NCBI GenBank assembly: GCA_014360905.1
Contig: JACIWW010000001.1
Location: 146,692-210,691 of the forward strand
DNA length: 64,000 nucleotides
Direction of reading: 5' to 3'
Source of the DNA: Chloroflexota bacterium
Lineage (GTDB): Bacteria > Chloroflexota > Anaerolineae > UBA2200
The notes under the pieces were generated by a model. The model did not search any database. It saw only the letters and a list, made by a program, of their open reading frames with translations, and was not told where the DNA came from. Position 1 is the stretch's first letter. Every line of letters starts with the position of its first letter. Made by a program: the position numbers and the translations under genes. Of this stretch, positions 12,837 to 55,687 are shown piece by piece.

Positions 12837-15800
12837 ATGCCTGCTTTGAGGCTGTATTTCCTTGGTCCGCTGGAGATCAGCTGGGATGGCCAGCCCTTGC
12901 CGACCCCTGCCACGCGTAAAGCGCAGTCCTTGCTCGCCTACTTGGTGATGAACCGCACCCGGCCACAACTTCGCGACCGCTTGGTTGATCTGTTCTGGGG
13001 AGAACAACCAATGCACAAGGCACGCCGTTCCCTTGCTACAGCGCTATGGCATATCCGTCGTTGCCTACCCACTGAACAGTTCATCCAGAGCGATGTATAC
13101 ACCGTCCAGTTTGTCGCACAAGGGAACCTATGGCTTGATGTAGACGAATGCGAATCCGCTCTAGGCGCCAACGACCTCTTTACTCTACAGCGCGGAATAA
13201 CGCTCTATCGAGGTGATTTCCTCGATGGTTTTTATGATGACTGGGTAATCAACGAACGCTACCGGCTGCAGAGCCTCTTCCTGGAAGGCCTCTCGCGTCT
13301 GATAGCTGGCTACGAGGCAGTGGGAAATCATCGCGCAGCATTGGCTACTGCACTCCGTCTCCTGGAGTGTGATCCGTTACGAGAGGATGCGCATCGTGCG
13401 GCCATGCGGGCCTATTGCCAATTAGGACAGCGCAACGCAGCTTTGCAGCAATATGCACGTTGCCGTGCCATCGTCCGGGAAGAGATAGATGTTGAGCCGA
13501 CAGCGGAAACGACTGAGCTTTACCAGCGCATCCTGGATGGCCGGCATCCAGTAGTCCCAGCTGTAGATGCTGTCCAAATCACTACCCCAAACCCGGTGCC
13601 GACAGCTCCGCGCACATACGGCCCACCACAGATTGCAGAACCTACACGACTGGTTGGACGAGAGAACGAACTAGCCTTCTTGCTGGAGAGCTGGCAATCA
13701 GCGACAGAAGGTAAAGGCGGCTTTGTGCTGATCGAGGGCGAGGCAGGTGTGGGCAAAACCCGTCTCGCGCAGGAGCTGGCCAATCGTCTGCATTGGCGGG
13801 GGGTGCGCCTGCTGTGGGGCCGTTGTTACGAGTTCGAGCGGCATCTGCCATACCAGCCCATCGCCGAATCTTTGCGCTCCATCTTGCCAACCATATCAGC
13901 AACAGAACTGGAGTGCTTCCCAACCTGGGTGCTAGCTGAGGTATCGCGCCTGGTACCTGAACTGGCCGAGCGCCGCCCAGGGCTTTCGCTACCAGTGCTA
14001 AATAGCCTGGATGAAGAACGGACACGCTTGTTTGACAGCGTGGTCCGATTCGTGGCCGAGTTATCCTCTCACGAGGCAATCCTTATGGTCCTCGAAGACC
14101 TGCACTGGGCCACTGATTCGACACTGCAATTGCTCCATTATCTGGTCCGTCAAACCTTGCATTCTCCCATTTTGATTGTAGGCACGTTCCGCGCAGAATC
14201 GGTCGGTGTCGGACATCCATTACATGGGCTGATGTCGGTATTGTCTCAGGAGGGATACTGCAAGCTGCTCAGGCTTGCTTGTCTCTCCGCTGCAGCAGTG
14301 CAGGACTTGCTCATTGAGATGTCGGGCGCAGGGGACAGCGTTCTACCTTTGGCCAAACGCTTGCACGCAGAAACGGAGGGTAACCCCTTCTTTCTTATGG
14401 AAACCGTCCAGGCACTATTTGAGACGGGCACACTGTATAGGGAAGAGGGAGTGTGGAGTGGCGACTTTGCCCGATTGAGCTGTGGGCATCTTCCGCTCCC
14501 TACAAGCATCAGCGCGGCCGTGCAGGCCCGAGTGAACCAGCTGAGCGAGGCAGCGCAGGAAGCATTGCATGTTGCCTCTGTAGCCGGTATGGAATTTGAC
14601 TTCGACCTGCTCCGAACCGCGTGGCAGCATGACACAGAAGAAACACTGCAGGCTTTGGACGACTTGCTCCGGTATAGAGTGATCGAAGAACACATGGATC
14701 CCCTGGGTCGTGACTATGCCTTTGTCCATCAAAAGATCCAAGAGGTTGTCTATGCTAGCCTTCCGTTGCGGCGGAGGCAGTACTTACATGCCTTGGTGGG
14801 ACAGGCCATGGAGTGCATCTACAGGAGTAAGATAGAACAGTTGGCAGGTGAGCTTGCCTTTCACTTTCAGCATGGCCGCTTGGTGGCACCAGAACTCACT
14901 GAAAAGGCGTTCCGCTATCTCCTACAGGCTGGAGACCGGGCACGACTGCTTGGCGCTCACAGCGAGGCGCTGGATTTCTATCATAGAGCATTACCACTAT
15001 TGGAGGAGTTGGACCTACCTGACCTGGCCGCTCGCACATGGATGAAGACAGGACTCGCTCATCACAATGCTTTCCAGTTTCGCGCGGCCCACCGCGCCTA
15101 CGAGCAGGGATTCACTCTCTGGAAGAAGGCTCAGGCGCAACAACCAGCTCGCCTAGCCGCCGCGCCACATGCACTCCGCGTGGCATGGTGGGACCCGACT
15201 ACCCTTGACCCTGCCCTATCAGGTGAGACCGCTTCTGGGGGCGTGATAGACCAGCTATTCTGTGGCCTAGTGGAGCTGAGCGCGGACATGGAAATCCTGC
15301 CCTCAATCGCTGAGAGTTGGGAAGTTCTCGACGGGGGTCGCCGCTACGTCTTTTATCTCCGGGAGGACGCGCGGTGGAGCAATGGCCATGCGGTAACAGC
15401 ACATGATTTCGAGTTTGCCTGGAAAAGGGCGCTGGACCCTAAAACTGGCGCGCCGCTGGCCAGTGCCCTGTATGATATCAAAGGAGCCAAAGTTTATCAC
15501 GAAGGAGCCATGTTTGACCAGACACAGCTCGGCGTAAGCGCTCTGAACGACACCACTCTGTCCATCGAACTAGCCGAACCCGCGGGTTATTTCCTGCAAA
15601 TTTTGGCTCTCCCGGTGGCTTATGCAGTTCCGCACTCTGTGGTGCAACAGCACGGGCCAGCCTGGACTGACTTAGCTCATCTGGTAGTCAATGGCCCCTT
15701 TCAGATCGAAGCCTGGAGGCATGGCGAATCCATGACACTGGTACGCAACCCAGCTTACTCCAGTCGTTCCAGGGGTAACGTGCAACACGTGGAGCTATGC

Positions 15801-16655
15801 CTCCTTGGCAGGGACACTGCGAAAGTTCTCTATGATGCGCACGAGCTAGACTTGTTCGATTTGCGGGGCCTGGTATCAGCCGAACTGGACCGCTTGCGCC
15901 AGATACACGCCGAGGACTATATCTCCGTCCCATGTCCTACCACCTGGTATCTGGCCTTTGACACAAGGAAACCGCCTTTTGATGACATGCGTGTACGACA
16001 GGCTCTTGCCTTGGCTATTGACAAGGAGAGGCTAGTCAATGTAGCCACAGGTGGTATCCACTCGCCGGCAAGTGGTGGTTTAGTGCCACCAGCCATGCTC
16101 GGTTATTCACCAGGCATTGCTCTGCCTTACCACCTAGAGCGAGCTCAACAACTTCTTGCGGAAGCTGGCTACCCCGGAGGGAGTGGCTTTCCAAGCCAGG
16201 AGCTGCAATGCGACGCTTATCCACGTACGGGGCCTCTAGCCAGCGAATTACAGAGGCAGTGGCAAGAGCACCTCCACATTCTGGTTCCCTTCGAGCTGCC
16301 GACTCTGCCCAGCTTCATGCACAGGGTGGAAGACAAATCCTCCCACCTTTTCCTCAGTGGCTGGGCGGCTGACTACCCCGACCCCGATAATTTCCTACGC
16401 GTCTGCTTGCAATGGCAGCGGACAGGGTGGCAAAACACGGCGTACAGCACGCTAGTGGAAAAAGCCAGGCAAACACCGCAGGCTGTCGAACGCATGCAGT
16501 TGTTTGGAGAAGCCGAGCGCATCCTGATCGCGGAGGCAGCGCTTATCCCCCTGACTCACGAGCGGCTGCACCTCCTGGTCAAGCCCTGGGTCAAGCTCCC
16601 CTTATCACCATTCAGATGGTGGTTCTGGAAGGACGTCATTATCGCTGCACATTGA
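12837..16655 (+). CDS. Multidomain one-component regulator: SARP/OmpR-like wHTH + BTAD + STAND/AAA ATPase + TPR-like region + C-terminal family-5 solute-binding-protein (SBP_bac_5) domain
   Basis: The N-terminus LRLYFLGPLEISWDGQPL...LLAYLVMN...LWHIRRCL is a SARP DNA-binding pattern, followed by a BTAD. The Walker A is GEAGVGKTRLAQEL. The C-terminus (ESWEV..DGGRRYVFYLRED..WSNGHAVTAHDF...GPFQIEAW...VRQALALAIDK...GWAADYPDPDNFL) is an unmistakable OppA/DppA-type fold. There is no signal peptide. Confidence 0.7.
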   Translation: MPALRLYFLGPLEISWDGQPLPTPATRKAQSLLAYLVMNRTRPQLRDRLVDLFWGEQPMHKARRSLATALWHIRRCLPTEQFIQSDVYTVQFVAQGNLWLDVDECESALGANDLFTLQRGITLYRGDFLDGFYDDWVINERYRLQSLFLEGLSRLIAGYEAVGNHRAALATALRLLECDPLREDAHRAAMRAYCQLGQRNAALQQYARCRAIVREEIDVEPTAETTELYQRILDGRHPVVPAVDAVQITTPNPVPTAPRTYGPPQIAEPTRLVGRENELAFLLESWQSATEGKGGFVLIEGEAGVGKTRLAQELANRLHWRGVRLLWGRCYEFERHLPYQPIAESLRSILPTISATELECFPTWVLAEVSRLVPELAERRPGLSLPVLNSLDEERTRLFDSVVRFVAELSSHEAILMVLEDLHWATDSTLQLLHYLVRQTLHSPILIVGTFRAESVGVGHPLHGLMSVLSQEGYCKLLRLACLSAAAVQDLLIEMSGAGDSVLPLAKRLHAETEGNPFFLMETVQALFETGTLYREEGVWSGDFARLSCGHLPLPTSISAAVQARVNQLSEAAQEALHVASVAGMEFDFDLLRTAWQHDTEETLQALDDLLRYRVIEEHMDPLGRDYAFVHQKIQEVVYASLPLRRRQYLHALVGQAMECIYRSKIEQLAGELAFHFQHGRLVAPELTEKAFRYLLQAGDRARLLGAHSEALDFYHRALPLLEELDLPDLAARTWMKTGLAHHNAFQFRAAHRAYEQGFTLWKKAQAQQPARLAAAPHALRVAWWDPTTLDPALSGETASGGVIDQLFCGLVELSADMEILPSIAESWEVLDGGRRYVFYLREDARWSNGHAVTAHDFEFAWKRALDPKTGAPLASALYDIKGAKVYHEGAMFDQTQLGVSALNDTTLSIELAEPAGYFLQILALPVAYAVPHSVVQQHGPAWTDLAHLVVNGPFQIEAWRHGESMTLVRNPAYSSRSRGNVQHVELCLLGRDTAKVLYDAHELDLFDLRGLVSAELDRLRQIHAEDYISVPCPTTWYLAFDTRKPPFDDMRVRQALALAIDKERLVNVATGGIHSPASGGLVPPAMLGYSPGIALPYHLERAQQLLAEAGYPGGSGFPSQELQCDAYPRTGPLASELQRQWQEHLHILVPFELPTLPSFMHRVEDKSSHLFLSGWAADYPDPDNFLRVCLQWQRTGWQNTAYSTLVEKARQTPQAVERMQLFGEAERILIAEAALIPLTHERLHLLVKPWVKLPLSPFRWWFWKDVIIAAH

Positions 16656-16823: not shown

Positions 16824-20642
<3,819 letters not shown>

Positions 20643-20820: not shown

Positions 20821-21021
20821 ATGGAACGAGGATCGCTCCCTGTGATGAATACCTTCGTTGTGCGCCTGTGGACGGAGCGGTCAGCCGAAGGAGCCCATTG
20901 GCGAGGGCGGATTGAGCATGTGCAAAGCAGAGAAAGTGCCATATTCTCTGATACAGAGGGCATGCTGGACTTTATCGGGCGTTTCGTGGAGATGAACCGA
21001 GGGAAGGAGAGTACAGGATGA
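20821..21021 (+). CDS. Small hypothetical protein (about 66 aa) translationally coupled to the downstream secreted peptidase gene
   Basis: RBS AAGGAAAAAGAC before the ATG at 20821, and the stop overlaps the next start (ATGA at 21018-21021). No recognisable domain. An alternative start is the ATG at 20791. Confidence 0.35.
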   Translation: MERGSLPVMNTFVVRLWTERSAEGAHWRGRIEHVQSRESAIFSDTEGMLDFIGRFVEMNRGKESTG

Positions 21022-30383: not shown

Positions 30384-32078
30384 ATGAACTCGAAGCTCTT
30401 CCATCCCTTGCATTGGGGGTGGGCAGTGGCTATCATCCTGGTTGCCTGTCAGCATGTTCCGGCGACGCCAACTTCCATGCCGCCTACGGCAGAACCGACC
30501 GCCACCCTAGTTCCGACGCCCACCTATCAGCCTTTTGTCCCCACAGCCACACCCATCCCGGCTGTCACAGCCCCCGCATGGGGAGAGGATACCATCCTGT
30601 ACCTTATTCTCCTGGCTAGTTTCTACGACTCTGATGGCGATGGCATTGGGGACTTGAACGGACTGACTGCAAAACTGGACTATTTGAACGATGGTAACCC
30701 TAACACAGACGATGACCTGGGAATCAATGCTATCTGGCTGATGCCCATCTTCGCAGCCGCCAGTTACCATGGTTACGATACGACCGACCACTTCCAGATA
30801 CGACCAGAGTATGGCAGTCAGGAAGACCTCATCCGCTTAGTAGAGGAGTGCCATAGGCGCGGCATCCGCGTGCTGCTGGATTATGTCATGGCACATATGT
30901 CCAACCAGCACCCCTTCTTCCAGGATGCCTATGGCAACCTGTCCTCTCCTTACGCCGACTGGTTCATCTGGTATGATGAGGCGCACACGCGTTACAAATC
31001 CTTCGCCAATATCCCTATCGTGCCCTCGATAAATGGAGATTGCCCTGCGGTGCAAGAGTATGCGCTGCGCGTGGCCCAGTACTGGATGGATTTGGATGGG
31101 GATGGAGACCTGAGCGATGGCGTGGACGGCTTCCGTTGCGATTACGCTTTGGGTCTGTCACACACCTTTTGGAAGAACTTGCGCCGTGGAATTAAAACGT
31201 TGCGGCCAGACTTTCTATTGCTAGGTGAAGTATGGAGCAATGCACCAGATATCGCCAGGTATTACCAAGACGAATTCGATAGCACCTTTGATTTTCCACT
31301 GTATTACATGCTGGCTGGCCACCAGGATACCGTGGGGCGTGGTGTGCTGGGCGGCACGGACAAGCCCGGTTTCATCCATGCCTCACTGGTGCAGCGTGCC
31401 AAATTGTATCCGTGGGGTGCGCAGAACGTGATCTTTCTGAACAACCACGACACGAACCGCGTGATGAGCAATGTGCAGGGCGACGTGCAACGGGCGAAAC
31501 TGGGAGCCACGCTCTTGTTCACCCTGCCGGGAACGCCGCTTGTCTATTACGGAGAAGAAATTGGCATGGCAGGGGTCAAGGGCAAAGGGCAGCCTTATTG
31601 GGACGAGTACCGTCGCGAGCCAATGGACTGGTATGCAGCTGAAGAAGGAGCGGGCATGACGACCTGGTTCCGTCCAACCGACCGTAACAATCGCCCCCAC
31701 GATGGCATCTCAGTGGAAGAACAGCAGAGCGACCCAAACTCACTGCTCAGCCATTACCGGCGCTTGATTCGCCTGCGTCAATCCTACTCAGCATTGCGTA
31801 GAGGCAGTTATGAGCGCGTAACAGTCGAAGAGGAATCTTCATACGTTTACGCCTATATGCGCCAGGATACTCAGGCTCACTTGCTGATCGTGCTCAATTT
31901 CGCTCGGGAACCAAAGCAGGCAACGCTTGACCTGGGTGCTTCGACATTGCCCGCACCGCCATGGGTAGTGTCCGACCCTCTGAGCCAGCGCACATTCCCC
32001 CCTATCACAGAGGATACGTGGACGCTTGAGTTGCAGGCACAAGAGGGGCTAGTTTTGGAACTGCATAGACCGCATTGA
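30384..32078 (+). CDS. Secreted/lipoprotein GH13 alpha-amylase family glycoside hydrolase
   Basis: Signal sequence with Cys (ILVACQH), a Pro/Thr linker, and DGDGIGDLNGLTAKLDYL...GINAIWLMPIF...GFRCDYA...NHD as the GH13 conserved regions. Confidence 0.8.
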   Translation: MNSKLFHPLHWGWAVAIILVACQHVPATPTSMPPTAEPTATLVPTPTYQPFVPTATPIPAVTAPAWGEDTILYLILLASFYDSDGDGIGDLNGLTAKLDYLNDGNPNTDDDLGINAIWLMPIFAAASYHGYDTTDHFQIRPEYGSQEDLIRLVEECHRRGIRVLLDYVMAHMSNQHPFFQDAYGNLSSPYADWFIWYDEAHTRYKSFANIPIVPSINGDCPAVQEYALRVAQYWMDLDGDGDLSDGVDGFRCDYALGLSHTFWKNLRRGIKTLRPDFLLLGEVWSNAPDIARYYQDEFDSTFDFPLYYMLAGHQDTVGRGVLGGTDKPGFIHASLVQRAKLYPWGAQNVIFLNNHDTNRVMSNVQGDVQRAKLGATLLFTLPGTPLVYYGEEIGMAGVKGKGQPYWDEYRREPMDWYAAEEGAGMTTWFRPTDRNNRPHDGISVEEQQSDPNSLLSHYRRLIRLRQSYSALRRGSYERVTVEEESSYVYAYMRQDTQAHLLIVLNFAREPKQATLDLGASTLPAPPWVVSDPLSQRTFPPITEDTWTLELQAQEGLVLELHRPH

Positions 32079-35112: not shown

Positions 35113-36186
35113 TTGGAATACAAAGAAGATTGGGAACAGGCCAAAGAGCACTTGATTGCCTTTTGGAATGGTTCCGCCATTCAGCGGGCAACTTTGCAGA
35201 TCTACGCACCGCGCGATGTGGCACTCCCGGGACCAAAACCACCGACCACTCCACAAGATCCGACGCAATTGTGGACAGACCCGGATTACCTCATCGCGGC
35301 AGCAGACCATCACTTTCGCACCCAGTACTTTGGAGCGGAAGCTGTCCCATCGCACTGGATTAACCTGGGCCCAGGAATCATGGCTACCTACTTGGGCTCG
35401 CGTCCTACTTTTGCCCCTGACACAGTTTGGTATGGCCCTATCGCATACGAATACGAACGCCCCCTCCTTCAGGAGGAGGACAATCGCTGGTGGCAACTGA
35501 CTAAGGACCTGACTCGCCTTTCTTGCGCATTCTTCGCCGGGAAAGCCCTAACCGGTATCACCGACCTGGGAGGCTGCACGGATGTACTGGCAAGTCTGCG
35601 CACTACAGAGGCTTTGCTTCTGGACATGGTTGGTCGTCCAGAGCAAGTGCAGCAGGCAGTCATCGAACTGGCTCACATCTGGGTTCATTGCTACAATGAG
35701 CTGTATGCAATGGTGGAAGAAAATGACCAGGGCAGCATCCAATGGCTCGGAGTTTGGGCGCCAGGCAAGATGTACAATGTGCAATCCGATCTATCCTGCA
35801 TGATCTCGCCAGCCATGTTCAACTCCTTTGTAGTCCCCGAATTGGAGATCGTGCTCTCCAATCTAGACTTTGCGCTTTACCACCTGGACGGCCCAGGTGC
35901 GATCAAGCATCTCGACCGCCTGCTGGAGATACCCAACCTAAAAGGCATCCAGTGGACGCCTGGTGAGGGACAACCGCCCGTCTCAGAGTGGATACCTATG
36001 TACCGACGCATCCAGAAGGCAGGCAAACTCCTGCATTTGCACGGCGAGGCACGCTATGCAGAGCGCGTGCTGAGGGCACTCGAGCCAGAAGGACTGATGT
36101 ACGTTACTTGGTGTGAGACCCAGACCGAAGCCGAGGATCTCATGCGCAAGGCAGAATCCTGGGCGGCAGGTCCACGCCGGGATTGA
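35113..36186 (+). CDS. URO-D/MtaA-like family protein (paralog 3)
   Basis: 357 aa. GGCTDVLASLRTTEALLLDMVGRPEQVQQAVIELAHIW is equivalent to the paralog-2 segment. TTG start after AGGAGGAG. Confidence 0.5.
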   Translation: MEYKEDWEQAKEHLIAFWNGSAIQRATLQIYAPRDVALPGPKPPTTPQDPTQLWTDPDYLIAAADHHFRTQYFGAEAVPSHWINLGPGIMATYLGSRPTFAPDTVWYGPIAYEYERPLLQEEDNRWWQLTKDLTRLSCAFFAGKALTGITDLGGCTDVLASLRTTEALLLDMVGRPEQVQQAVIELAHIWVHCYNELYAMVEENDQGSIQWLGVWAPGKMYNVQSDLSCMISPAMFNSFVVPELEIVLSNLDFALYHLDGPGAIKHLDRLLEIPNLKGIQWTPGEGQPPVSEWIPMYRRIQKAGKLLHLHGEARYAERVLRALEPEGLMYVTWCETQTEAEDLMRKAESWAAGPRRD

Positions 36187-36386: not shown

Positions 36387-36854
36387 ATGGAGAAGCAACC
36401 CAATTCGCGCACTTGTTTTGTCTGTGGCCGCCAAAACCCAGTGGGGTTGAAAGTAAGTTGGTACAATGACCATGCCACCCAGCGAGTTCAGGCCACTGTC
36501 GCCATTCCAGAGCACTTCAATGGTTATCCAGGCATTGTGCATGGCGGTATCATTGCCGCACTCCTAGATGAAACCGCAGGGCGTGCCCTGCTTCTGGATG
36601 GCGATGACCGCAACCTAATGGTAACGCTCAAGTTGGAGGTAAAATATCGCAGGCCAGTTCCCACTAGCCAACCCGTGACCTTGTATGGTTGGGGCACCCA
36701 ACGCACATCCAACAGGGCCAGAGTTGCTGCCAACCTCTTGCTCCCCGATGGAACTATTGCAGCAGAAGCAGAAGCCATCCTGGTACGACCACCACAAGAG
36801 TTCTTCGACCGCTGGGAACCGGAGAAACCCTTCTGGCGCGTATACGAAGATTGA
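36387..36854 (+). CDS. PaaI/4HBT-type hotdog-fold thioesterase
   Basis: 155 aa. CFVCGRQNPVGLKV...GIVHGGIIAALLDETAG is the PaaI family signature. Confidence 0.7.
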   Translation: MEKQPNSRTCFVCGRQNPVGLKVSWYNDHATQRVQATVAIPEHFNGYPGIVHGGIIAALLDETAGRALLLDGDDRNLMVTLKLEVKYRRPVPTSQPVTLYGWGTQRTSNRARVAANLLLPDGTIAAEAEAILVRPPQEFFDRWEPEKPFWRVYED

Positions 36855-36948
36855 CAGGGTATCAACCCACTGCAGGCCTTCAAAACGGGAACAAACCTGC
36901 GTATTTAGGCGTCAGAGATACGCAATGTCTAGTTTTGAGGAGGCGGCT

Positions 36949-39900
36949 ATGTTGGATTATACTCCACAGCGCAATGCGTTCTTTGGGCATCGTGCGGCGG
37001 TACGGAGATACGCTCACGCTCTATTGTCATTTCTGCTCATAACAGGCATGGTGGGGTGTGTTGCGCCTGCGACACCCATGCCAACCAAAGTCCCAGTTGT
37101 CACTGGCGAGTATGGGCTGACCATGGTCCGACCCGCCACTCTGCTCGTTACAGAAGGATGCACAGGCGGCATGCGTTTCGCACTTAGCCAGGGTTCGGAA
37201 GTACCCATTCAACCAGTTCCTGTACCGCTAGCAGAGACAGAGCCTCTGTCCCCAGAGGAAGCACAGGCCGTGTTGAACAGGCTGCCCCCGCTTGCGGACA
37301 GACCTGAGGATAGGCAAGAATTTCGCTTGCCACCAGAGACGCTGCCTGCGCCACGCCCAGGCGAGACGATCCAACAGCCCTTCCCACCGTCTGTTGAAAT
37401 GCAACCTAGTGAGCAACCACCTGCTGGCCCATTGAGAGTGCTCCGTTACAGCCCCGAGGGCAATGTGGAGTTGGCTCCTTTCCTCAGCATCACCTTCGAC
37501 CAACCAATGGTGCCTCTCACTGACCACGCCGAACTGGCGGCAAAGGAAGTGCCGGTCAAACTGTCGCCTTTGCCCCAGGGGTCCTGGCGCTGGGTGGGCA
37601 CCAAGACCCTCGTTTTCCAGCCGACCGTCCGCTTCCCCATGGCCACCATCTACACGGTGGAAATCCCCGCCGGCACTACTTCAGCCATCGGCGGCAGGCT
37701 GGAAGAAACCGTTTCGTGGACCTTTACCACGCCGCCGCCACGCGTAGTGTCGACGCATCCCGCAGAAGGTCCTCAAGTGCGCAATCCATTGATATTCGTT
37801 GCTTTCGACCAGCGCATTGATCCTTCTGCCGTATTGGAAACAATCAAGGTCAAGGCAGGCGGCAAAGTGTTCCCCACCATGCTGGCCAAGAAAGAGGAAG
37901 TAGAGGCGGACGAGACGGTTGCCCGTCTGGCAAAAGATGCTGGCGAAGGACGCTGGCTGGCCTTCCGTTGCTCAGACTTGTTGCCCTATGACACTACCGT
38001 TACCGTGGACATTGGCCCCGGTACGCCGTCAGCGGAAGGCCCTCTGATCACGGATAGCGTGCAGAGCTTCACCTTCACCACGTACGGGCCATTGCGTGTC
38101 GTGGAATCCAATTGTGGCTGGGGGGATGAATGTCGCCCCATGATGCCTTGGTACATCCGTTTCAGCAATCCGCTGAACGGGGAAGTCTTTGATGAATCCC
38201 TGGTGCAGATTGAACCGGAATTGCCCGGAGGAAAGCTCTCCATCATAGGCAACACCTTGCAAATCGAGGGACGCTCCAAAGGGCGGACGACTTACAAAGT
38301 AACGCTGAAAGCGGGCATCGCTGACCAGTTCGGGCAAACTCTAGGCAAAGACACAATCGTTACCTTCCAGGTCGGCTCAGCCGAACCGTCCATGTACGTC
38401 TCCTGGGAAAACCTCGCTGTTGTGGATCCCGCCGGCAAGCCAACGTATTCCATTTTCACCATCAACTACAACACAGTGACGGTGAAAGCCTACGCAGTGA
38501 AGCCAGAGGATTGGCTCAGTTACCTGGAGTATCTGCAGGAAGCCAGCCGTCGCGACCAGCCCCGTGAGCCACCGGGCCGTAAAGTATTGGATGAGCAGGT
38601 ACGTGTCGCTGGCGAGTTGGACACCCTCACTGAGACTTCTATTGACCTGACACGCGTGCTGGAAGGCGGAAAGGGGCATGTCATCCTGATCATAGAAGCG
38701 GGTCAGCCCTCCGTGTCAATCTCTGCGGATCGGGATTGGAAACCAGTGATCCGCGTCTGGGTGCAGGTGACCAACATTGGCTTGGATGCTTTTGTGGACA
38801 GTCAGCAAATGATTGCCTGGGCCAACTCGATCCAAGATGGAACTCCGCTGCAAGGAGTAGAATTGACCCTCTTCCCAGGAAAAGTTAGTGCCAAGACCAG
38901 CCCTGACGGATTGGCTAGGTTACCCCTGCCCTCCAAGGAGGAGAAAAACGGTTATCTCATTGCCCAGCTTGGTGATGACACTGCTATTTTGCCTCGCAGC
39001 ACCAGTTGGTGGGACATTGGCTGGCGTTATGTAGAATCAGTAGACCAGCCGCGTTGGTACGTTTTCGATGACCGCCAGATGTACCGCCCCGGCGAGGAAG
39101 TCCATGTCAAAGGTTGGGTTCGCTTGGTCGGCATGAGCGAGGGCGCCGATGTGCTGACTGCACCTCCAAAGGGCACGCCTGTTTCTTATCAGGTGGTTGA
39201 TTCCCGCGATAACCAACTCCTGGCCGGCACACTATACCTGAATGCCCTCGGCGGGTTTGACACATCGTTCAAACTGCCAGAAAACATGAACTTGGGCTAT
39301 GCCAATCTACGCTTGGCTTTAGGCGGCGCAGTAGCAAGCGGGGCAGAGCACTACCATACATTTCAGGTTCAGGAATTCCGGCGTCCAGAATTTGAGGTTT
39401 CCACTAGCATCAGCGAAGGTCCCTACTTCGTTGGGGAACATGCCACTGCCACAGTCGAAGCCAAGTACTATGCGGGGGGGCCGTTGGCCAATTCCGAGGT
39501 TATCTGGAACGTAACCTCGCAGCCGGGGACCTACAGACCACCTAATTGGGATGACTTCACCTTCGGTATCTGGGTACCTTGGTGGCGCGGTTTTCCCCGC
39601 TGGGGCATCCCGGAGCCCGTGACTATCCGCTCTCAAACCTTTACTGGCGTTACCGATGCAGCGGGCAAGCACAATCTGCGCATTGACTTCGAGGCAGTTG
39701 ACCCTCCGCAGCCAAATAATGTCACAATAGAAGCCTCGGTCATGGATGTCAACCGCCAGGCCTGGTCTGCCTCCTCGCAGATTCTAGTACATCCCGCCGA
39801 CCTGTACGTGGGCTTGCGCACCAGCGCCACTTTTTACGAGAAAGGCAAGCCTATCAAAGTAGATGCCATCGTCACAGATCTGGATGGCAAAACCATAGCC

Positions 39901-42900
39901 GACAGACCCATTGAGATGCGCATGGTACGTCTGGACTGGCGCTACGTGAAAGGCGAATGGCGTGAGGAAGAAGTGGATGAACAACGCTGCACCGTAGGTT
40001 CACAAGAGGAGCCGGTTAGCTGCACTTTCGAAACGCCAGAAGGCGGTACCTACCGCATCACTGCAACTATTGTGGATGGCAAGGGTCGCCGCAATTTGAC
40101 CCAGATCACCCGCTGGGTTAGTGGCGGGAAGCAGCCCGGTGCGACGCGGGTGGAGCAAGAAGAAGTTGAGTTGATTCCCAACCGCCAGGAATATCAGCCT
40201 GGGGATACAGCGGAGATACTGGTGCAGTCGCCGTTCGTCCCCGCCGAGGGACTGCTTACCTTGCGCCGAGCCGGTATCATCCACACGGAGCGCTTTCGCA
40301 TGGATGAGTCCACGTACACCATCCGGGTACCGATTGTGGAAGCATATATCCCCAACCTTCACGTGCAAGTGGATCTCGTCGGCTCCGCACCTCGTCTGAA
40401 CAGCGCAGGCGAGGTAGATGAAACCTTGCCAAAGAGGCCCGCCTTCGCCACCGGCCGACTGGACCTCTCCGTGCCACCGTACTCGCGCACGCTCTCCCTG
40501 CAGGTAACACCGAGGGATAAAGAACTGGAGCCAGGCGGAGAAACCCTAGTAGACATCACCGTGAAAGACGCATCGGGCAAACCAGTACAAGGCGCCGAAC
40601 TGGCCGTGGTGGTAGTGGATGAAGCTATCTTGTCTCTGACCAATTACCAGCTTGCCGACCCGGTGGCGATTTTCTACCAGCGTCGTTCAGCCGGTGTAGC
40701 AGATTATCACTTGCGGGGACACATCCTTCTAATGGAGCCTTCCGGGCTAGTAGAACAGGTAGCATCCGATCAGATGTTGCGCGCAGCCCTACCGATGGCC
40801 ATGGCTCCTGTGCCACCGATGCCGGCAGAGAAATCGTATGTGGGGGCTGAGGCGCCAAGCACTGGCCAGCCCATCCAAATACGCATGGATTTCAACCCGC
40901 TGGCCACTTTCGAACCGGAGGCGCCTACGGATGCAGATGGGCATGCAGCGGTGCAGGTCAAACTACCTGACAACCTAACCCGCTACCGTGTCATGGTCGT
41001 AGCAGTGGCCGGTGAGAGGGAATTTGGCAAGGCTGAATCGAGCATCACCGCGCGGCTACCGTTGATGGTGCGCCCCTCGCCACCGCGCTTCCTGAACTTT
41101 GGTGATGAGTTCGAGTTGCCAGTGGTCATACAGAACCAGACAGATGAGCCGATGCAGGTAGATGTTGTAGTACGTGCAACCAATATGAACCTCGTTGGTA
41201 GCGCTGGTCAGCGCTTGACCGTCCCAGCACGAGATCGCCGCGAAGTGCGCTTCCCGTTCACCACAGACAAAGCTGGCACTGCCCACTTCCAGGTGGGTGC
41301 TGTGTCTGGCCCCTGGGCTGACGCGGCTGAGTTCTCTCTCCCCGTGTACACTCCAGCCACGACAGAGGCCTTCGCCGTCTATGGTATCGTAGATGAAGGC
41401 GCCATTGCTCAGCCAGTGATTGCCCCCAGTAATGCCTACGTACAATTTGGTGGCCTTGACATCAGCACCTCATCCACAGCCCTGCAAGCGTTGACAGATG
41501 CAGTGCTCTACTTAGTAGAGTATCCCTTTGAATGCTCGGAACAAATCGCATCGCGCATTCTGGCTGTGGCCGCACTACGCGATGTGTTGAGCGCTTTCCA
41601 AGCTGAAGGGCTACCTAGGCCGGAAGAGCTACTCAAAGCAGTGCAGCGTGACATCGAAATACTACAGGGTCTTCAGAATATGGATGGCGGCTTTCCTATC
41701 TGGCAACGAGGGCGTGAGTCCTGGCCTTTCCACACCATCCATGCGGCCCATGCCTTGGTCAGAGCCAAGCAGAAGGGCTTTACTGTGCCCGATGAGATGC
41801 TATCTAGCGCATTGAACTATATACGGGATATCGAAAAACACTTTCCATCCTGGTACAGCAAGGATGTGCGCAATACCCTCACCGCTTATGCCCTCTATGT
41901 TCGGACGCAACTAGGGGATGTGGACACCGCCCGCGCCCGCAAATTGCTCAGGGACGAGGGCGCGACTGGGCTGCAACCAGAGGCTCTGGGCTGGCTGCTC
42001 TATGTGCTTTCCGATGACCCGCAATCCACCGCAGAGGTAACCGAGATTCGTCGCTTTCTCAACAATCGCGTGGTGGAAACAGCAGGCGCTGCTACCTTCA
42101 CCAACTCCTATCGCGAGGAAGATGGCTATCTGTTGCTGGCATCCAATCGCCGTGCCGATGGGGTCATCTTAGAAGCGCTGATCAAAGACCAACCAGACAG
42201 CGACCTGATTCCCAAAATCGTTCGCGGCTTGCTGGCCCATCGCAAACGGGGCAAATGGGACAACACGCAGGAGAATGTTTTCATCCTCCTGGCGTTGGAC
42301 AAGTACTTTAATACTTACGAAGCGCAGACACCCGAGTTCGTAGCACGCATTTGGCTCGGCGATCAGTATGTGGCAGGTTTCAAATTCGTGGGCCGCACTA
42401 CGGAGTACCAGGCAGTGCAGGTACCCATGTGGTTCCTCGTTCAGCGCCAGGGTGTGCAGAATCTCATCCTGAGCAAGGACGGGCCAGGCCGGCTTTACTA
42501 TCGGCTGGGCATGAGATATGCTCCTAAAGATCTGGACCTTGAACCAACGGAGCAGGGCTTTACCGTGCTACGCACTTACGAAGCCGTGGATAACCCCCAG
42601 GATGTGCAGCAAGATGAGGACGGCACCTGGCACGTCCGCGCCGGGGCACGAGTGCGTGTGCGGCTAACTATGGTCGCGCCATCGCGCCGCTATCACGTTG
42701 CACTGATGGACCCATTGCCGGCAGGATTCGAAATCCTCAACCCCGCTCTGGCTGTCACCGGCAGCATCCCTCAAGACCCTGCAGACCAGGAGAGCATGCG
42801 CTACTGGTGGTGGCATTGGACTTGGTATGAGCACCAGAACCTGCGTGATCAGCGTGCTGAAGCCTTTGCTTCCCTGCTCTGGGAGGGCGTCCACACTTAT

Positions 42901-43020
42901 ACCTACGTTGCCCGCGCTACTACGCCTGGCAAATTCATCGTCCCTCCGCCTAAGGCAGAGGAAATGTATTCGCCGGAAGTGTTTGGGCGCGGAGGAACGG
43001 ACTGGGTAGTCGTGGAATAA
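36949..43020 (+). CDS. Bacterial alpha-2-macroglobulin family lipoprotein (about 2023 aa) with CxEQ thioester motif
   Basis: Lipoprotein signal RRYAHALLSFLLITGMVGC. The motif YPFECSEQ is comparable to YPYGCLEQ of ECAM/YfhM, and the length is typical of bacterial A2M. The ATG at 36949 has RBS GAGGAGG; the ORF-track 5' extension overlaps the PaaI gene and is rejected. Confidence 0.8.
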   Translation: MLDYTPQRNAFFGHRAAVRRYAHALLSFLLITGMVGCVAPATPMPTKVPVVTGEYGLTMVRPATLLVTEGCTGGMRFALSQGSEVPIQPVPVPLAETEPLSPEEAQAVLNRLPPLADRPEDRQEFRLPPETLPAPRPGETIQQPFPPSVEMQPSEQPPAGPLRVLRYSPEGNVELAPFLSITFDQPMVPLTDHAELAAKEVPVKLSPLPQGSWRWVGTKTLVFQPTVRFPMATIYTVEIPAGTTSAIGGRLEETVSWTFTTPPPRVVSTHPAEGPQVRNPLIFVAFDQRIDPSAVLETIKVKAGGKVFPTMLAKKEEVEADETVARLAKDAGEGRWLAFRCSDLLPYDTTVTVDIGPGTPSAEGPLITDSVQSFTFTTYGPLRVVESNCGWGDECRPMMPWYIRFSNPLNGEVFDESLVQIEPELPGGKLSIIGNTLQIEGRSKGRTTYKVTLKAGIADQFGQTLGKDTIVTFQVGSAEPSMYVSWENLAVVDPAGKPTYSIFTINYNTVTVKAYAVKPEDWLSYLEYLQEASRRDQPREPPGRKVLDEQVRVAGELDTLTETSIDLTRVLEGGKGHVILIIEAGQPSVSISADRDWKPVIRVWVQVTNIGLDAFVDSQQMIAWANSIQDGTPLQGVELTLFPGKVSAKTSPDGLARLPLPSKEEKNGYLIAQLGDDTAILPRSTSWWDIGWRYVESVDQPRWYVFDDRQMYRPGEEVHVKGWVRLVGMSEGADVLTAPPKGTPVSYQVVDSRDNQLLAGTLYLNALGGFDTSFKLPENMNLGYANLRLALGGAVASGAEHYHTFQVQEFRRPEFEVSTSISEGPYFVGEHATATVEAKYYAGGPLANSEVIWNVTSQPGTYRPPNWDDFTFGIWVPWWRGFPRWGIPEPVTIRSQTFTGVTDAAGKHNLRIDFEAVDPPQPNNVTIEASVMDVNRQAWSASSQILVHPADLYVGLRTSATFYEKGKPIKVDAIVTDLDGKTIADRPIEMRMVRLDWRYVKGEWREEEVDEQRCTVGSQEEPVSCTFETPEGGTYRITATIVDGKGRRNLTQITRWVSGGKQPGATRVEQEEVELIPNRQEYQPGDTAEILVQSPFVPAEGLLTLRRAGIIHTERFRMDESTYTIRVPIVEAYIPNLHVQVDLVGSAPRLNSAGEVDETLPKRPAFATGRLDLSVPPYSRTLSLQVTPRDKELEPGGETLVDITVKDASGKPVQGAELAVVVVDEAILSLTNYQLADPVAIFYQRRSAGVADYHLRGHILLMEPSGLVEQVASDQMLRAALPMAMAPVPPMPAEKSYVGAEAPSTGQPIQIRMDFNPLATFEPEAPTDADGHAAVQVKLPDNLTRYRVMVVAVAGEREFGKAESSITARLPLMVRPSPPRFLNFGDEFELPVVIQNQTDEPMQVDVVVRATNMNLVGSAGQRLTVPARDRREVRFPFTTDKAGTAHFQVGAVSGPWADAAEFSLPVYTPATTEAFAVYGIVDEGAIAQPVIAPSNAYVQFGGLDISTSSTALQALTDAVLYLVEYPFECSEQIASRILAVAALRDVLSAFQAEGLPRPEELLKAVQRDIEILQGLQNMDGGFPIWQRGRESWPFHTIHAAHALVRAKQKGFTVPDEMLSSALNYIRDIEKHFPSWYSKDVRNTLTAYALYVRTQLGDVDTARARKLLRDEGATGLQPEALGWLLYVLSDDPQSTAEVTEIRRFLNNRVVETAGAATFTNSYREEDGYLLLASNRRADGVILEALIKDQPDSDLIPKIVRGLLAHRKRGKWDNTQENVFILLALDKYFNTYEAQTPEFVARIWLGDQYVAGFKFVGRTTEYQAVQVPMWFLVQRQGVQNLILSKDGPGRLYYRLGMRYAPKDLDLEPTEQGFTVLRTYEAVDNPQDVQQDEDGTWHVRAGARVRVRLTMVAPSRRYHVALMDPLPAGFEILNPALAVTGSIPQDPADQESMRYWWWHWTWYEHQNLRDQRAEAFASLLWEGVHTYTYVARATTPGKFIVPPPKAEEMYSPEVFGRGGTDWVVVE

Positions 43021-43067
43021 AGGCAAGGACGTAGTAGGCCTTTATAGCTTACTTTTACGCAACAGAT

Positions 43068-43105
43068 AAGCGGATGGCAGTAACGATTGTTCCAGCCATC
43101 CGCTT
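43068..43105 (+). terminator. Hairpin AAGCGGATGGC-N16-GCCATCCGCTT downstream of the A2M stop
   Basis: 11-bp perfect stem about 50 nt after the stop at 43020, followed by TGCGTTTACAATTAC. Confidence 0.4.
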
Positions 43106-43259
43106 TGCGTTTACAATTACACCGTCTGGTTTAATGGCGATCTTCGCAACCCCCTATAGCTCTTGGTGTTTAGTATTAGTAGAAGTATCATTGCCCCGCC
43201 GTATCATAGCCTTAGCCGAGCAAAAGCGCGGGAAAGAGAAAAACTTGACAAGGAGAAAA

Positions 43260-44642
43260 ATGAAAGTATTGCTTGTTCAGCCTGAGGATCCCCCAAGCCT
43301 GGTGGGTTTCACAAGGCTGGCGCGTGCTGAACCCTTGGCGCTCGAGATTCTGGCAGCCACTATCCCTGACCACGAAGTCAGGATATTGGACCTGCGCATC
43401 GAACCTAACCTGGAGGAAGCCGTAGCGCAGTTTGCGCCGCAAATGGTAGGGGTGACTGGTTATACGACCAATGTGCCACGCATGTTATCCATCTGCCGAG
43501 AAGTGAAAGCCTTTGACCCTGGCATCTTCACCGTGGTAGGCGGTTACCATGCCACGCTCTGTCCTGAAGATTTCGACCACGATGAGATTGACGCGATAGT
43601 GGTTGGCGAAGGCGAAGCGACTTTTCCACAATTAGTTGAAGCTGTCTCCAGAGGTCTGGATTATCGCCGGGTACCTGGGATCATTTATCGTCAATATGGT
43701 GCCCAGGTGCGCACTGCACCCAGGCCCTTGATCGTGCTTGACGAATCACCGCTGCCAGCTCGCCATCTGGTGGATCAATATCGAAAGGACTACTTCTTTC
43801 AATTTTGGGCCTCACCTTGTCCAGTTGAGACGGCTAGGGGATGTCCATACCGCTGCAAATTCTGCTCTGTCTGGACTTTCCACCGACGGAGATGTCGCTC
43901 CAAGTCGCCAGAGCGGGTGCTGGAAGAGCTAAAGAATGCGATAACAGATGTGGTTGCTTTTGTAGATGACAACTTCTTACAGAATTTGCCGCGTGCGGAG
44001 CGTATTTACGAACTGATCAAGGCTGCAGGGATAAAAGCCAAATTCTGGATGCAGGCGCGGAGTGACAGCATTGTTAGCCGCCCCGATATTATCGAAAAAT
44101 GGGCAGAAATAGGACTCATGACCGTATTGGTGGGCTTTGAAAAGTTTCGGCAGGAAGAATTGAACGGCCTGAGCAAAAGGAGCTCTGTTCGTATTAATGA
44201 GGAGGCCGCGCACATCCTACACGCGAATGCAGTAGATATATGGGGAGCCTTTATCGTTGACCCGCAATGGAAGAGGTCTGATTTCGATGCCCTTATCGAG
44301 TATGTGCGCAGACTGAAGATCACCTTCCCGCAATTCACCATCCTTACTCCACTGCCTGGGACAGAGTTCTTTAAAGAAAAGCTGAACGAGCTAACCACCC
44401 GCAACTATGAGCTGTTCGACTTCCTACACAGTGTCCTGCCGACCAGATTGCCCACAAAACAGTTCTACGAGAACATGGCACGGCTCTATGCTAGCACCAT
44501 GATGAGTATATCGGAGCTCAAAGAACGCATTCGTTCGGGGCGCATCCAGACCTCTGCGCTGAGGCAAGTGAAAAACTTGCTTGCTGACCTAACGAACCCC
44601 CAAGCCTATTTGTCAGGCCTCCAAACACCGACCAAGCGTTGA
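43260..44642 (+). CDS. B12-binding domain radical SAM protein (class B)
   Basis: N-terminal cobalamin-binding Rossmann domain (MKVLLVQPED..ILDLR...VGVTGYTT) plus CPYRCKFCSVW, a CxxxCxxC motif. RBS AAGGAG. Confidence 0.8.
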   Translation: MKVLLVQPEDPPSLVGFTRLARAEPLALEILAATIPDHEVRILDLRIEPNLEEAVAQFAPQMVGVTGYTTNVPRMLSICREVKAFDPGIFTVVGGYHATLCPEDFDHDEIDAIVVGEGEATFPQLVEAVSRGLDYRRVPGIIYRQYGAQVRTAPRPLIVLDESPLPARHLVDQYRKDYFFQFWASPCPVETARGCPYRCKFCSVWTFHRRRCRSKSPERVLEELKNAITDVVAFVDDNFLQNLPRAERIYELIKAAGIKAKFWMQARSDSIVSRPDIIEKWAEIGLMTVLVGFEKFRQEELNGLSKRSSVRINEEAAHILHANAVDIWGAFIVDPQWKRSDFDALIEYVRRLKITFPQFTILTPLPGTEFFKEKLNELTTRNYELFDFLHSVLPTRLPTKQFYENMARLYASTMMSISELKERIRSGRIQTSALRQVKNLLADLTNPQAYLSGLQTPTKR

Positions 44643-44662
44643 ACCGATTCCTCTTTGAGTCG

Positions 44663-44683
44663 TGCTGAGGTCGCACCTCAGCA
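44663..44683 (+). terminator. Hairpin TGCTGAGGT-cgc-ACCTCAGCA right after the radical SAM stop
   Basis: 9-bp stem with a 3-nt loop about 20 nt after the stop, but with no U-tract. Confidence 0.3.
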
Positions 44684-44847
44684 TCGCGCGTAACTGGAAC
44701 TAAGCTGTCTCAGTTATACATAGATTCTTCAATGCTGTTTTTCACTCTGTTCATGTTGGAACTGTCAACTTGCCAAAATGCGCAGAGTTAAGTATATGTT
44801 ATATGAGTCTGAAAAACATGGCTTTGCCAGGAGGGTGAACTTCGGAT

Positions 44848-54448: not shown

Positions 54449-55687
54449 CTACTGGCCAAGCAGGACCTTGGGGCCTTCCGTCTTGATCCAGTCGGTAACC
54501 TCTTTGTTGGAAAGGCGGACACGGTACGCTTCTACTTCTTCCCACTTGGGGATCTTGCGCCAGACGACATCCGGGATCTTGTCCCAGATTTCCGTGCCGG
54601 TATACTGCCACATCGTGGTGATCAGGCGGATCTGCTGGTCATCCGAAAGCAGATAATTGATGACCTTCATGGCCACAGGCTTGTACGGTTCAGAGATATT
54701 GCCCGGGATGGCCAGGTAGCCATCCGAGCCTGCCGGCAGCCCATCGCTAAGCGCAGCTGCTGCAAGCGTTGGCGGCATGGTCCCCTGGCTGATAGACCAC
54801 AGAGAATAATCCATAGCGTACACTGCGATCCAGGTATCACCAGCGTTAAAATCCTCAAACATGTTCGTTGGCTCGTTGGCGATCTTGCAGTAAGTCAGGA
54901 AATCTTTCAGTTTGTCCACTGCTTCCTGGAACTCGGGCTTTGCCTGCAGTTCTGCCAACGGGATGGGCTTGTCCTGGGCATCTGTGAGTGGGACATACGC
55001 ATTGAGGAAGCTGTACGGCAGGCTGCGGCCGGAGCCAGATTTGGAATCGGGGCGCATCCAGCCGATATGACCCTTCCACTCTGCACGCCGCTCGTAAAAT
55101 TCCTTCCAAGACTTGGGCGGATTCTTGACGTACTCGGTGTTATAAATCAGCGTATATTGGCTGCGCCAGTAGAGTGCGCCCGTGCCTTGGATGTCCACAC
55201 CCTGCGCCAGTTCGAGGTAATCCTCGCGGCACTTGGTCAGATTCGGGATCTCTCCCTTGAGATCAGGCCATAGCTTGACCAAGGAGATTCCCTGCTGCAC
55301 CATATTGGCAATGTGCTCGGGCTTGACGAACAGCAAGTGCACATCGCCCTTGCCCGCTTCCCAAGCCTTCATGCGCTCGATCAGCTCTGATTCACTGCCC
55401 ACTACATAGTTAACTTTCACCCCCAATTGCTCCTGGATGGAGGGGATGACCACGTTCTGCCAGTACCATTGGAAATTGGCACCGGAGTTGGTATCTACCA
55501 TGGTGATCTCTGTTGGCGCTGGCGGTGGGGGTGTCGGCGTGATGGGAACAACCACCGTCTCCTTGACAACCTGAGTCTCCCTTTGGACAATGACCTGCGG
55601 TGTAGGTGTAGGAGATGGTGCGCATGAAACCACGAGAGCGGCCACAACCAAGATCAAAACGAATAGTCTCCACATTTTGTTGCCCAT
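54449..55687 (-). CDS. ABC transporter substrate-binding lipoprotein (family 1, PotD/AfuA-like)
   Basis: Signal plus lipobox ...VVSCAPSPTPTP followed by a Pro/Thr linker. 412 aa. Confidence 0.8.
   Translation of the reverse strand: MGNKMWRLFVLILVVAALVVSCAPSPTPTPQVIVQRETQVVKETVVVPITPTPPPPAPTEITMVDTNSGANFQWYWQNVVIPSIQEQLGVKVNYVVGSESELIERMKAWEAGKGDVHLLFVKPEHIANMVQQGISLVKLWPDLKGEIPNLTKCREDYLELAQGVDIQGTGALYWRSQYTLIYNTEYVKNPPKSWKEFYERRAEWKGHIGWMRPDSKSGSGRSLPYSFLNAYVPLTDAQDKPIPLAELQAKPEFQEAVDKLKDFLTYCKIANEPTNMFEDFNAGDTWIAVYAMDYSLWSISQGTMPPTLAAAALSDGLPAGSDGYLAIPGNISEPYKPVAMKVINYLLSDDQQIRLITTMWQYTGTEIWDKIPDVVWRKIPKWEEVEAYRVRLSNKEVTDWIKTEGPKVLLGQ

Follow-up and report, generated by a model that had tools for sequence, protein, structure and literature searches.

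A stand-alone, probably membrane-tethered alpha-2-macroglobulin with a thioester motif in a Chloroflexota genome, and the large family to which it belongs

We have analysed a 64,000-nucleotide stretch of contig JACIWW010000001.1 of a Chloroflexota bacterium (assembly GCA_014360905.1, positions 146,692 to 210,691; Anaerolineae, UBA2200), below called the window, for the alpha-2-macroglobulin (A2M) gene that it carries and for the genes around it (Table 1). An earlier reading of this DNA, made from the letters alone and below called the sequence-only reading, had described a thioester-containing lipoprotein A2M of roughly 2023 amino acids (aa) that lacks the PBP1c partner gene and lies between a thioesterase gene and a radical S-adenosylmethionine (SAM) gene. 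The gene is a real and intact bacterial A2M. Its source open reading frame (ORF) spans 36685-43020 on the forward strand; the preferred start is the ATG at 36949, 5 nt 3′ of a GAGGAGG, which gives the 2023 aa described. The longer reading from 36685 was rejected because it would run into the thioesterase gene and has no signal sequence at its N-terminus, and the sole promoter-like site upstream (36935-36963), which covers the start codon, was set aside. The product is 100% identical to an entry of nr named “hypothetical protein [Chloroflexota bacterium]”.

A profile search, proposed in the sequence-only reading as a check, finds the domains of the A2M superfamily in the order expected of a bacterial A2M: two Big_5 domains, bMG3, MG2, a weak bMG5, A2M_BRD, A2M and bMG10. 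The scores are all above the Pfam gathering scores for bMG10 (125.8 bits), A2M_BRD (72.9), A2M (65.6), MG2 (55.1) and bMG3 (37.7); no NCBIfam model matches the protein. Against the PDB, phmmer matches solely Salmonella SaA2M and Escherichia coli ECAM (YfhM), at E ~1e-29.

Table 1. Features of the window; positions count from its first letter
Feature	Position	Strand	Details
A2M gene	36949..43020	+	2023 aa plus stop; Pfam, PDB phmmer, Foldseek
Shine-Dalgarno-like GAGGAGG	36937..36943	+	direct reading; 5 nt ahead of the A2M ATG
Lipoprotein signal peptide (predicted)	36949..37059	+	n-region with RR, h-region ALLSFLLITGMVG, lipobox MVG before Cys37
Lipobox Cys37	37057-37059	+	Pro/Thr linker comes next
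Pro/Thr-rich flexible tether (predicted)	37060..37419	+	aa 38-157; AF2 pLDDT mostly <55 (residues 1-120 of the modelled segment)
Five beta-sandwich domains (predicted)	37432..39009	+	aa ~162-687; Pfam Big_5 x2; AF2 pLDDT ~90
Bait region (putative)	40720..40872	+	aa ~1258-1308; Met/Ala/Pro/Glu-rich, predicted disordered, between BRD and A2M domains
Thioester domain (TED), alpha/alpha toroid	41476..42366	+	aa ~1510-1806; helical repeat, pLDDT 85-93; aligned to the SaA2M/ECAM TED
Thioester motif YPFECSEQ	41521..41544	+	aa 1525-1532; Tyr1525, Phe1527, Cys1529, Gln1532
C-terminal MG10 (CTMG) domain	42556..42978	+	Pfam bMG10 E 1.7e-36; carries the lock motifs
Lock motif RDQR	42844-42855	+	aa 1966-1969; aligned on ECAM RDDR
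Lock motif EEMY	42958-42969	+	aa 2004-2007; aligned on ECAM ESMY
Hotdog-fold (4HBT/PaaI-like) thioesterase	36387..36854	+	155 aa, no signal peptide; Pfam 4HBT E 3.6e-11
Hairpin 3′ of the A2M stop	43068..43105	+	11-bp perfect stem, 16-nt loop, weak U tract UGCGUUUAC; probable terminator
B12-binding radical SAM gene	43134..44642	+	longest ORF from 43074; Pfam B12-binding and Radical_SAM
Segment with hairpin and radical SAM gene	43028-44759		1.7 kb; no counterpart in L081 or L035
ORF without Pfam or NCBIfam match	35113-36186	+	357 aa
Regulator/solute-binding fusion protein	12837-16655	+	1272 aa
Sortilin/BNR-repeat protein	16824-20642	+	1272 aa
CBM96 protein	21018-24674	+	1218 aa
Lipobox protein	27149-28477	+	VGGC followed by APKPTPTP
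Lipobox protein	54449-55687	-	VVSC followed by APSPTPTP
Lipobox protein	30384-32078	+	LVAC followed by QHVPATPTS

In ECAM, Cys1187 and Gln1190 make the thioester bond and Tyr1183 and Tyr1185 of the TED form part of a protective pocket; the bacterial thioester is also shielded by a Met-Tyr pair of the CTMG domain, within an EXMY motif, and the RDDR motif of ECAM contacts the TED and, once it has been cleaved, the bait (PMC4498604). The motif YPFECSEQ of the window protein pairs column for column with YPYGCLEQ of SaA2M and ECAM, both in phmmer and when ECAM and 58 family members are aligned with MAFFT, which places C1529-S-E-Q1532 on C1187-L-E-Q1190 of ECAM. The intact CxEQ motif of the sequence-only reading is therefore borne out, and on alignment it lies within the thioester domain and not outside it. 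The pocket residues likewise stand at aligned positions, with Tyr1525 and Phe1527 in the TED and the RDQR and EEMY motifs in the CTMG domain.

Within the mature protein, column entropy (H 2.25-2.61) and gap fraction in the family alignment peak at the putative bait region, whose length and sequence differ in every lineage. Its identity to the two closest relatives is 0.58-0.62, as against 0.84-0.87 overall, and the immediate flanks are 84-93% identical. Modelling of this region, also proposed earlier as a check, gives it a predicted local distance difference test score (pLDDT) of 30-50 in an AlphaFold2 (AF2) model. Such variability and predicted disorder fit what is expected of a bait.

We produced two AF2 models, one of the C-terminal half (aa 1040-2023) and one of the N-terminal part (aa 38-700). 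The C-terminal model has a mean pLDDT of 66.8 and is confident for the MG domains and the helical thioester domain; a Foldseek search with it ranks SaA2M and ECAM (4u48 and 5a42) first, at E ~1e-41, followed at lower ranks by A2ML1, CD109, human A2M, TEP1 and C3/C5. The N-terminal model (pLDDT 82.5) has ~120 disordered residues, the least conserved N-terminal stretch across the family alignment (aa 38-157), and then five beta-sandwich domains, the best Pfam Big_5 stretch being aa 168-261. Its top Foldseek match is 4zjg, the MG0-NIE-MG1 portion of ECAM (E 4.8e-15), with the Ig-like domains of the S-layer protein SbsC and of LdtMt2 next. The boundaries of the sandwiches and their mapping to ECAM were drawn from the secondary-structure string of the model; so placed, the first two would be Big_5 Ig-like domains that ECAM lacks and the last three would be the equivalents of MG0-NIE-MG1. 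Because phmmer pairs the window protein from residue 605 onward with ECAM from residue 248 onward, the 370 residues by which it exceeds ECAM probably correspond to the tether and the two Big_5 domains.

The N-terminus of the protein reads MLDYTPQRNAFFGHRAAVRRYAHALLSFLLITGMVG ahead of Cys37 and VAPATPMPTKVP after it, in which a basic n-region precedes the lipobox LITGMVG-Cys37. The lipobox is kept in two relatives whose loci are collinear with the window, as IMGC in L081 (86%) and VLGC in L035 (83%), and the lipoprotein signal described earlier is thus confirmed as a motif; lipidation of Cys37 is predicted from it. Two ATP-binding cassette (ABC) solute-binding proteins and one alpha-amylase of the window also carry a lipobox Cys and a Pro/Thr linker (the lipobox proteins of Table 1). 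A lipobox Cys with a linker is the usual tether for extracytoplasmic proteins in bacteria without an outer membrane, and ECAM, an inner-membrane lipoprotein, has the same topology. Because the solute-binding proteins and the amylase share this design, anchoring of the A2M on the outer face of the cytoplasmic membrane, as had been suggested, fits the data. Chloroflexota are regarded as having neither BAM and lipopolysaccharide genes nor a true outer membrane (PMC13319060); in such an envelope the protein would face outward, on a stalk that may span a thick wall.

Bacterial A2Ms have been described as periplasmic proteins of Gram-negative bacteria, of two types: those with a thioester and PBP1c (Type I), and those without a thioester and with the Mag operon (Type II) (PMC5764988, PMC3735191, PMC4498604). 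The sequence-only reading had taken adjacency to pbpC as classical for thioester A2Ms; the pairing is indeed described as frequent, or as found “in a number of bacteria”, and these papers stop short of calling it universal (PMC5764988, PMC4498604). No transglycosylase gene adjoins the A2M gene, as had been stated. With PbpC and YfhM queries taken from the E. coli K-12 record, the best PbpC match in the 64-kb window by tblastn has an E value of 0.26; the six frames of the window hold no GT51 signature motif, and Pfam finds no cell-wall enzymes among the flanking genes, which encode sugar ABC transporters, two alpha-amylases, URO-D-like, aldehyde:ferredoxin oxidoreductase, IlvD, PhoU/PHO4 and DJ-1 proteins, and kinases. 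We then collected 79 related loci, at 43-83% identity, by scanning one genome for each species, with flanks of at most 10 kb on each side (1.5 Mb together). PbpC-like matches lie in none of these flanks, even at E 0.1, and GT51 motifs are absent from the whole 1.5 Mb. The related loci accordingly show neither pbpC within 10 kb of the A2M gene nor a gene order conserved across the family. The E. coli YfaA, YfaP, YfaQ and YfaT proteins have no tblastn match at E 0.01 in the window or the 79 loci. All-against-all clustering of the neighbouring ORFs yields no family present in more than 11 of the 79 loci, and the commonest clusters consist either of generic proteins (response regulators, ABC ATPases) or of Caldilineaceae-specific ones.

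A defence-and-repair pair could also be formed in trans, should the genome encode a PBP1c-type synthase at another site. The genome was covered here over 64 kb only, and the pairing hypothesis is built on gene adjacency in proteobacteria (PMC5764988), while function needs no strict adjacency. We nonetheless consider such a partner improbable: a class A PBP lies within 10 kb in none of the 79 loci, which include contigs of more than 1 Mb and several phyla; the family alignment holds no feature pointing to contact with a PBP; and the family is as distant from YfhM (Type I; 20.6% identity over 1493 aa) as from YfaS (Type II; 22.8% over 801 aa of the yfaS pseudogene). Nor does the absence of pbpC go with a monoderm envelope, since family members on long contigs labelled Acidobacteriota and Myxococcota have none in their flanks either. 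PBP1c pairing belongs to the proteobacterial Type I lineage and not to thioester A2Ms as such.

The family to which the window protein belongs is very large and undescribed, consists mostly of Chloroflexota proteins and is probably ordinary in mechanism; the protein is no oddity. A word-index search returned more than 3600 matches to the A2M, of which the best 120 are all ~2000 aa long and 56-86% identical, and, where named, are assigned to Chloroflexota, Anaerolineae, Caldilineaceae or Litorilinea; the Litorilinea orthologue stands at 57%. When the N-terminal module (aa 60-700) was used in an exhaustive search, 1017 clusters at 50% identity came up, with E values up to 1e-30; their full-length members are likewise ~2000 aa. 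Since Acidobacteriota- and Myxococcota-type labels occur among the contigs, the family is not confined to Chloroflexota: loci lie on long contigs labelled Pyrinomonadaceae or Blastocatellia (~2 Mb) and on a 137-kb contig labelled Myxococcales, and shorter contigs are labelled Bradymonadales and Planctomycetia. In a distance tree the members group in a single tight clade, which a long branch separates from ECAM. Members are routinely annotated “alpha-2-macroglobulin family protein” in public databases; our literature search found no description of an A2M from Chloroflexota or from a monoderm, nor of a stand-alone long-stalk class, and a paper on the Litorilinea envelope makes no mention of macroglobulin (PMC13319060).

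The N-termini of the family vary. A lipobox is present in ~40%, and the Acidobacteriota members have plain signal peptides. An uncleaved N-terminal transmembrane (TM) helix without a Cys (e.g. RLPILIAIVILAVIGAFLIIRN) is common among Anaerolineales orthologues (L003-L007, L009-L011, L015, L037 and others). Since members with no lipobox carry a TM helix or a plain signal peptide in its place, export is the common feature, and most members are membrane-anchored.

Most family members retain the thioester Cys. Others have Ser, Gly or Ala instead, at no fewer than five separate places in the tree, and all of these keep RDxR and EEMY. One such place is the whole Ardenticatenaceae/Leptofilum/Promineifilaceae clade. 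The Cys-less orthologues are L022, L023, L026, L027, L029, L030, L034, L041, L053, L054 and L063, which form one clade; L069 with L077; L002; L009; and L068. Cys-less orthologues often lack the Gln as well (e.g. HRYDSADE) while keeping the CTMG lock motifs.

Two further alternatives were weighed. The protein might be a covalent surface tag or adhesin, which would attach in the manner of C3 or TEP to foreign surfaces, polymers or neighbouring cells instead of inhibiting proteases. Its TED fold is common to C3, TEP1 and CD109, its long Ig-like stalk is similar to the Ig domains of S-layer proteins and adhesins, and it would be exposed on the cell surface if the outer membrane is absent. We judge this role hardly probable, given that the nearest structures and sequences are bacterial protease traps, that a hypervariable bait goes together with conserved lock motifs of the bacterial kind, and that tethering to the cell’s own membrane suits capture more than deposition; the repeated loss of the thioester Cys also speaks against covalent tagging as a core function. 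Lower still are the chances that the A2M fold has been co-opted as a structural component of a multilayered Chloroflexota envelope, for which one could cite the abundance of the family in that phylum, the resemblance of the stalk domains to S-layer proteins, the dispensability of the thioester in several clades and, from a reading of the sequences, envelope-biogenesis-like genes ahead of the Caldilineaceae gene. A passive structure is hard to square with bait hypervariability alongside strict conservation of RDxR, EEMY and the TED, and no self-assembly domains were identified.

As to those Caldilineaceae genes, a conserved, envelope-related set stands upstream of the A2M gene in ten loci (L019, L025, L031, L039, L052, L060, L069, L071, L077 and L079) of a sub-clade that is mainly Caldilineaceae/Caldilineales. 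We read its genes, from their sequences, as candidates for a WecA/MraY-like transferase, a large O-antigen-ligase-like TPR membrane protein, a lipoprotein cyclophilin and a DedA-like protein.

The genes on either side of the A2M gene in the window had been suggested to mark a different functional context, a proposal that is not supported: these neighbours are not conserved and the thioesterase is cytoplasmic. The hotdog-fold (4HBT) assignment of the upstream gene product is confirmed (PF03061, 43.7 bits against a cut-off of 20.6). The PaaI subfamily named earlier is not established, because TIGR00369 scores 30.4 bits, under its cut-off of 36.6. Having no signal peptide, the thioesterase should be unable to meet the exported A2M. 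Of the 79 loci plus L081, only L035 and L081 have it next to the A2M gene; in L067 a distant homologue lies downstream of A2M. L081 shows the full 25-kb gene order of the window, and L035 agrees with the window at each neighbour tested, the radical SAM gene excepted. A link between the thioesterase and the “thioester” of the A2M was rejected on the grounds of different compartments and shallow synteny.

The downstream gene does encode a B12-binding radical SAM protein, as had been described; it is HpnR-like at 261 bits, far under the cut-off of 650. All 79 related loci and L081 lack the gene, and in L035 and L081 the A2M gene is directly followed by the DJ-1 gene. The gene lies with the hairpin in a 1.7-kb segment that has no counterpart in these two collinear loci and stands in place of a 93-bp stretch bearing the terminator hairpin of L081; the segment looks like a recent insertion or replacement. 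A link between radical SAM gene and A2M was rejected, the gene lying within a segment that the relatives lack. The thioesterase and radical SAM genes are accidental neighbours of the A2M gene and not functional partners.

The “strong terminator” reported after the A2M gene is upheld as to its stem, which is perfect over 11 bp and has a folding free energy of -21.3 kcal/mol (z -3.45 against shuffles for the 108-nt context), and is qualified by a weak U tract and by a scan for consensus terminators that made no call between the A2M and radical SAM genes, the 16-nt loop being beyond the limit of that scan. A strong hairpin also stands here in L035 and L081, but it is a different one. Because the hairpin overlaps the first ATG of the radical SAM ORF (43074), the in-frame ATG at 43134 is the more likely start. 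It is very improbable that thioesterase, A2M and radical SAM protein work as a single unit, in which the two enzymes might, for instance, modify or reset the thioester of the A2M: the genes share a strand, have short gaps of 94 and 53-113 nt, and keep thioesterase-A2M adjacency in L035 and L081, but both enzymes lack the signal peptide that an exported partner would call for, the radical SAM gene is missing from both collinear relatives and from 79/79 loci, a hairpin separates it from the A2M gene, and the thioesterase is a neighbour in only three close genomes, which are collinear in any case.

Four other genes of the window were recorded in passing. The 357-aa ORF upstream of the thioesterase gene lies on the opposite strand in L035 (4758 to 3691) and L081 (8135-9208, minus), and its orientation is due to a single-gene inversion in the window genome. 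A 1272-aa protein has a Trans_reg_C winged helix, BTAD and an AAA_16 ATPase domain (SARP/BTAD-type) and ends in a family-5 extracellular solute-binding domain, which is unusual on a cytoplasmic regulator. Two giant, secreted-looking proteins, one with Sortilin/BNR repeats and the other with a CBM96 carbohydrate-binding module, sit upstream of a sugar-uptake/amylase cluster.

The likeliest function of the A2M is that of a classical protease trap, triggered at the bait and armed with a thioester; more fully, we consider that the gene probably encodes a monomeric, membrane-tethered, stand-alone trap of the A2M kind without a linked PBP1c partner. The protein would be exported, lipidated on Cys37 and held at the outer face of the cytoplasmic membrane by the ~120-residue tether and the Ig-like stalk. 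In the resting state the Cys1529-Gln1532 thioester would be buried between the TED (Tyr1525, Phe1527) and MG10 (Met2006, Tyr2007, RDQR). A foreign protease arriving at the membrane would cleave the exposed, disordered bait; cleavage would free the lock and shift the TED, the thioester would form a covalent bond with one of the protease's lysines, and the protease would be caught at the cell surface, hindered sterically. The gene itself stands alone, with a ribosome-binding site and a terminator-like hairpin of its own.

Several points weigh against this account. Protease trapping by the family is argued from sequences and models, and the packing between domains in the C-terminal model is unreliable (predicted template modelling score 0.38); because it is so uncertain, we infer the burial of the thioester rather than read it from the three-dimensional model. 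The second pocket aromatic is Phe1527 and not Tyr, a position at which the family alternates between the two, and the lipobox is slightly atypical in having Met at -3 and its Cys as late as residue 37. The monoderm state of the source organism is presumed from its phylum (PMC13319060), and diderm-like tomograms have been reported for some Chloroflexota (PMC13319060). Lastly, the thioester Cys has been lost independently at least five times with the lock motifs persisting, which argues that covalent capture is not essential to the role of the family.

Because so large a family fits neither described type, pairing with PBP1c is no inherent property of thioester A2Ms, and a scheme of two types does not cover all bacterial A2Ms. 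What is new is at the family level: a stand-alone, long-stalk class dominant in a phylum regarded as having no outer membrane, with interchangeable anchors and recurrent loss of the thioester. We tentatively propose, at a little less than an even chance, that these proteins form a third class of bacterial A2M, ~2000 aa long, stand-alone and long-stalked, with a flexible N-terminal tether, extra Ig-like domains and a lipid or TM anchor and without PBP1c or Mag partners, which would be the main A2M of Chloroflexota and an outward-facing protease shield at the wall. If so, such A2Ms would not be a periplasmic back-up behind an outer membrane, and its repeated, independent losses of the thioester would form a natural series from which to ask what covalent capture adds. 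Monomeric thioester A2Ms with diverse baits, together with their natural Cys-less variants, could also be of use in protease-capture tools and in tests of the thioester's contribution. Since the mechanism is expected to be conventional, the gain is one of classification and ecology and not of a new principle.

Compared with known systems, the window protein is most like the Type I A2Ms ECAM (YfhM) and SaA2M (PDB 5a42 and 4u48), with which it shares the CxEQ motif at the aligned position, a lipoprotein signal, a monomer-type MG/BRD/TED/MG10 architecture with a putative bait predicted to be disordered, the TED aromatics, the CTMG Met-Tyr pocket, an RDDR-like motif and, as predicted, anchoring at the outer face of the cytoplasmic membrane. 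It differs from ECAM in being only ~21% identical and 370 residues longer (the ~120-aa tether plus two Big_5 domains), and from Type I in general in that it and 79 relatives have no adjacent pbpC, its host phylum is held to have no outer membrane, and its family swaps the lipobox for a TM helix or a plain signal peptide, with several members lacking the thioester. With the Type II proteins, Pseudomonas aeruginosa MagD and E. coli YfaS, it has in common the superfamily, a putative bait region and a similar sequence distance, and the thioester-less members of its family likewise lack CxEQ; the window protein itself has both CxEQ and a lipobox, whereas MagD has neither (PMC3735191), and the six-gene mag/yfa operon, with homologues of YfaA, YfaP, YfaQ and YfaT, was not found in the window or the related loci. 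The eukaryotic proteins human A2M, A2ML1, CD109, TEP1 and C3 share the MG ring, the bait or activation segment and the alpha/alpha TED (Foldseek E 1e-28 to 1e-33), at 11-14% identity. Their pocket residues all lie in the C-terminal MG domain, whereas the window protein has two of them in the TED, as bacterial A2Ms do (PMC4498604); and the eukaryotic forms are secreted or linked to glycosylphosphatidylinositol, whereas the window protein is predicted to be tethered to the membrane.

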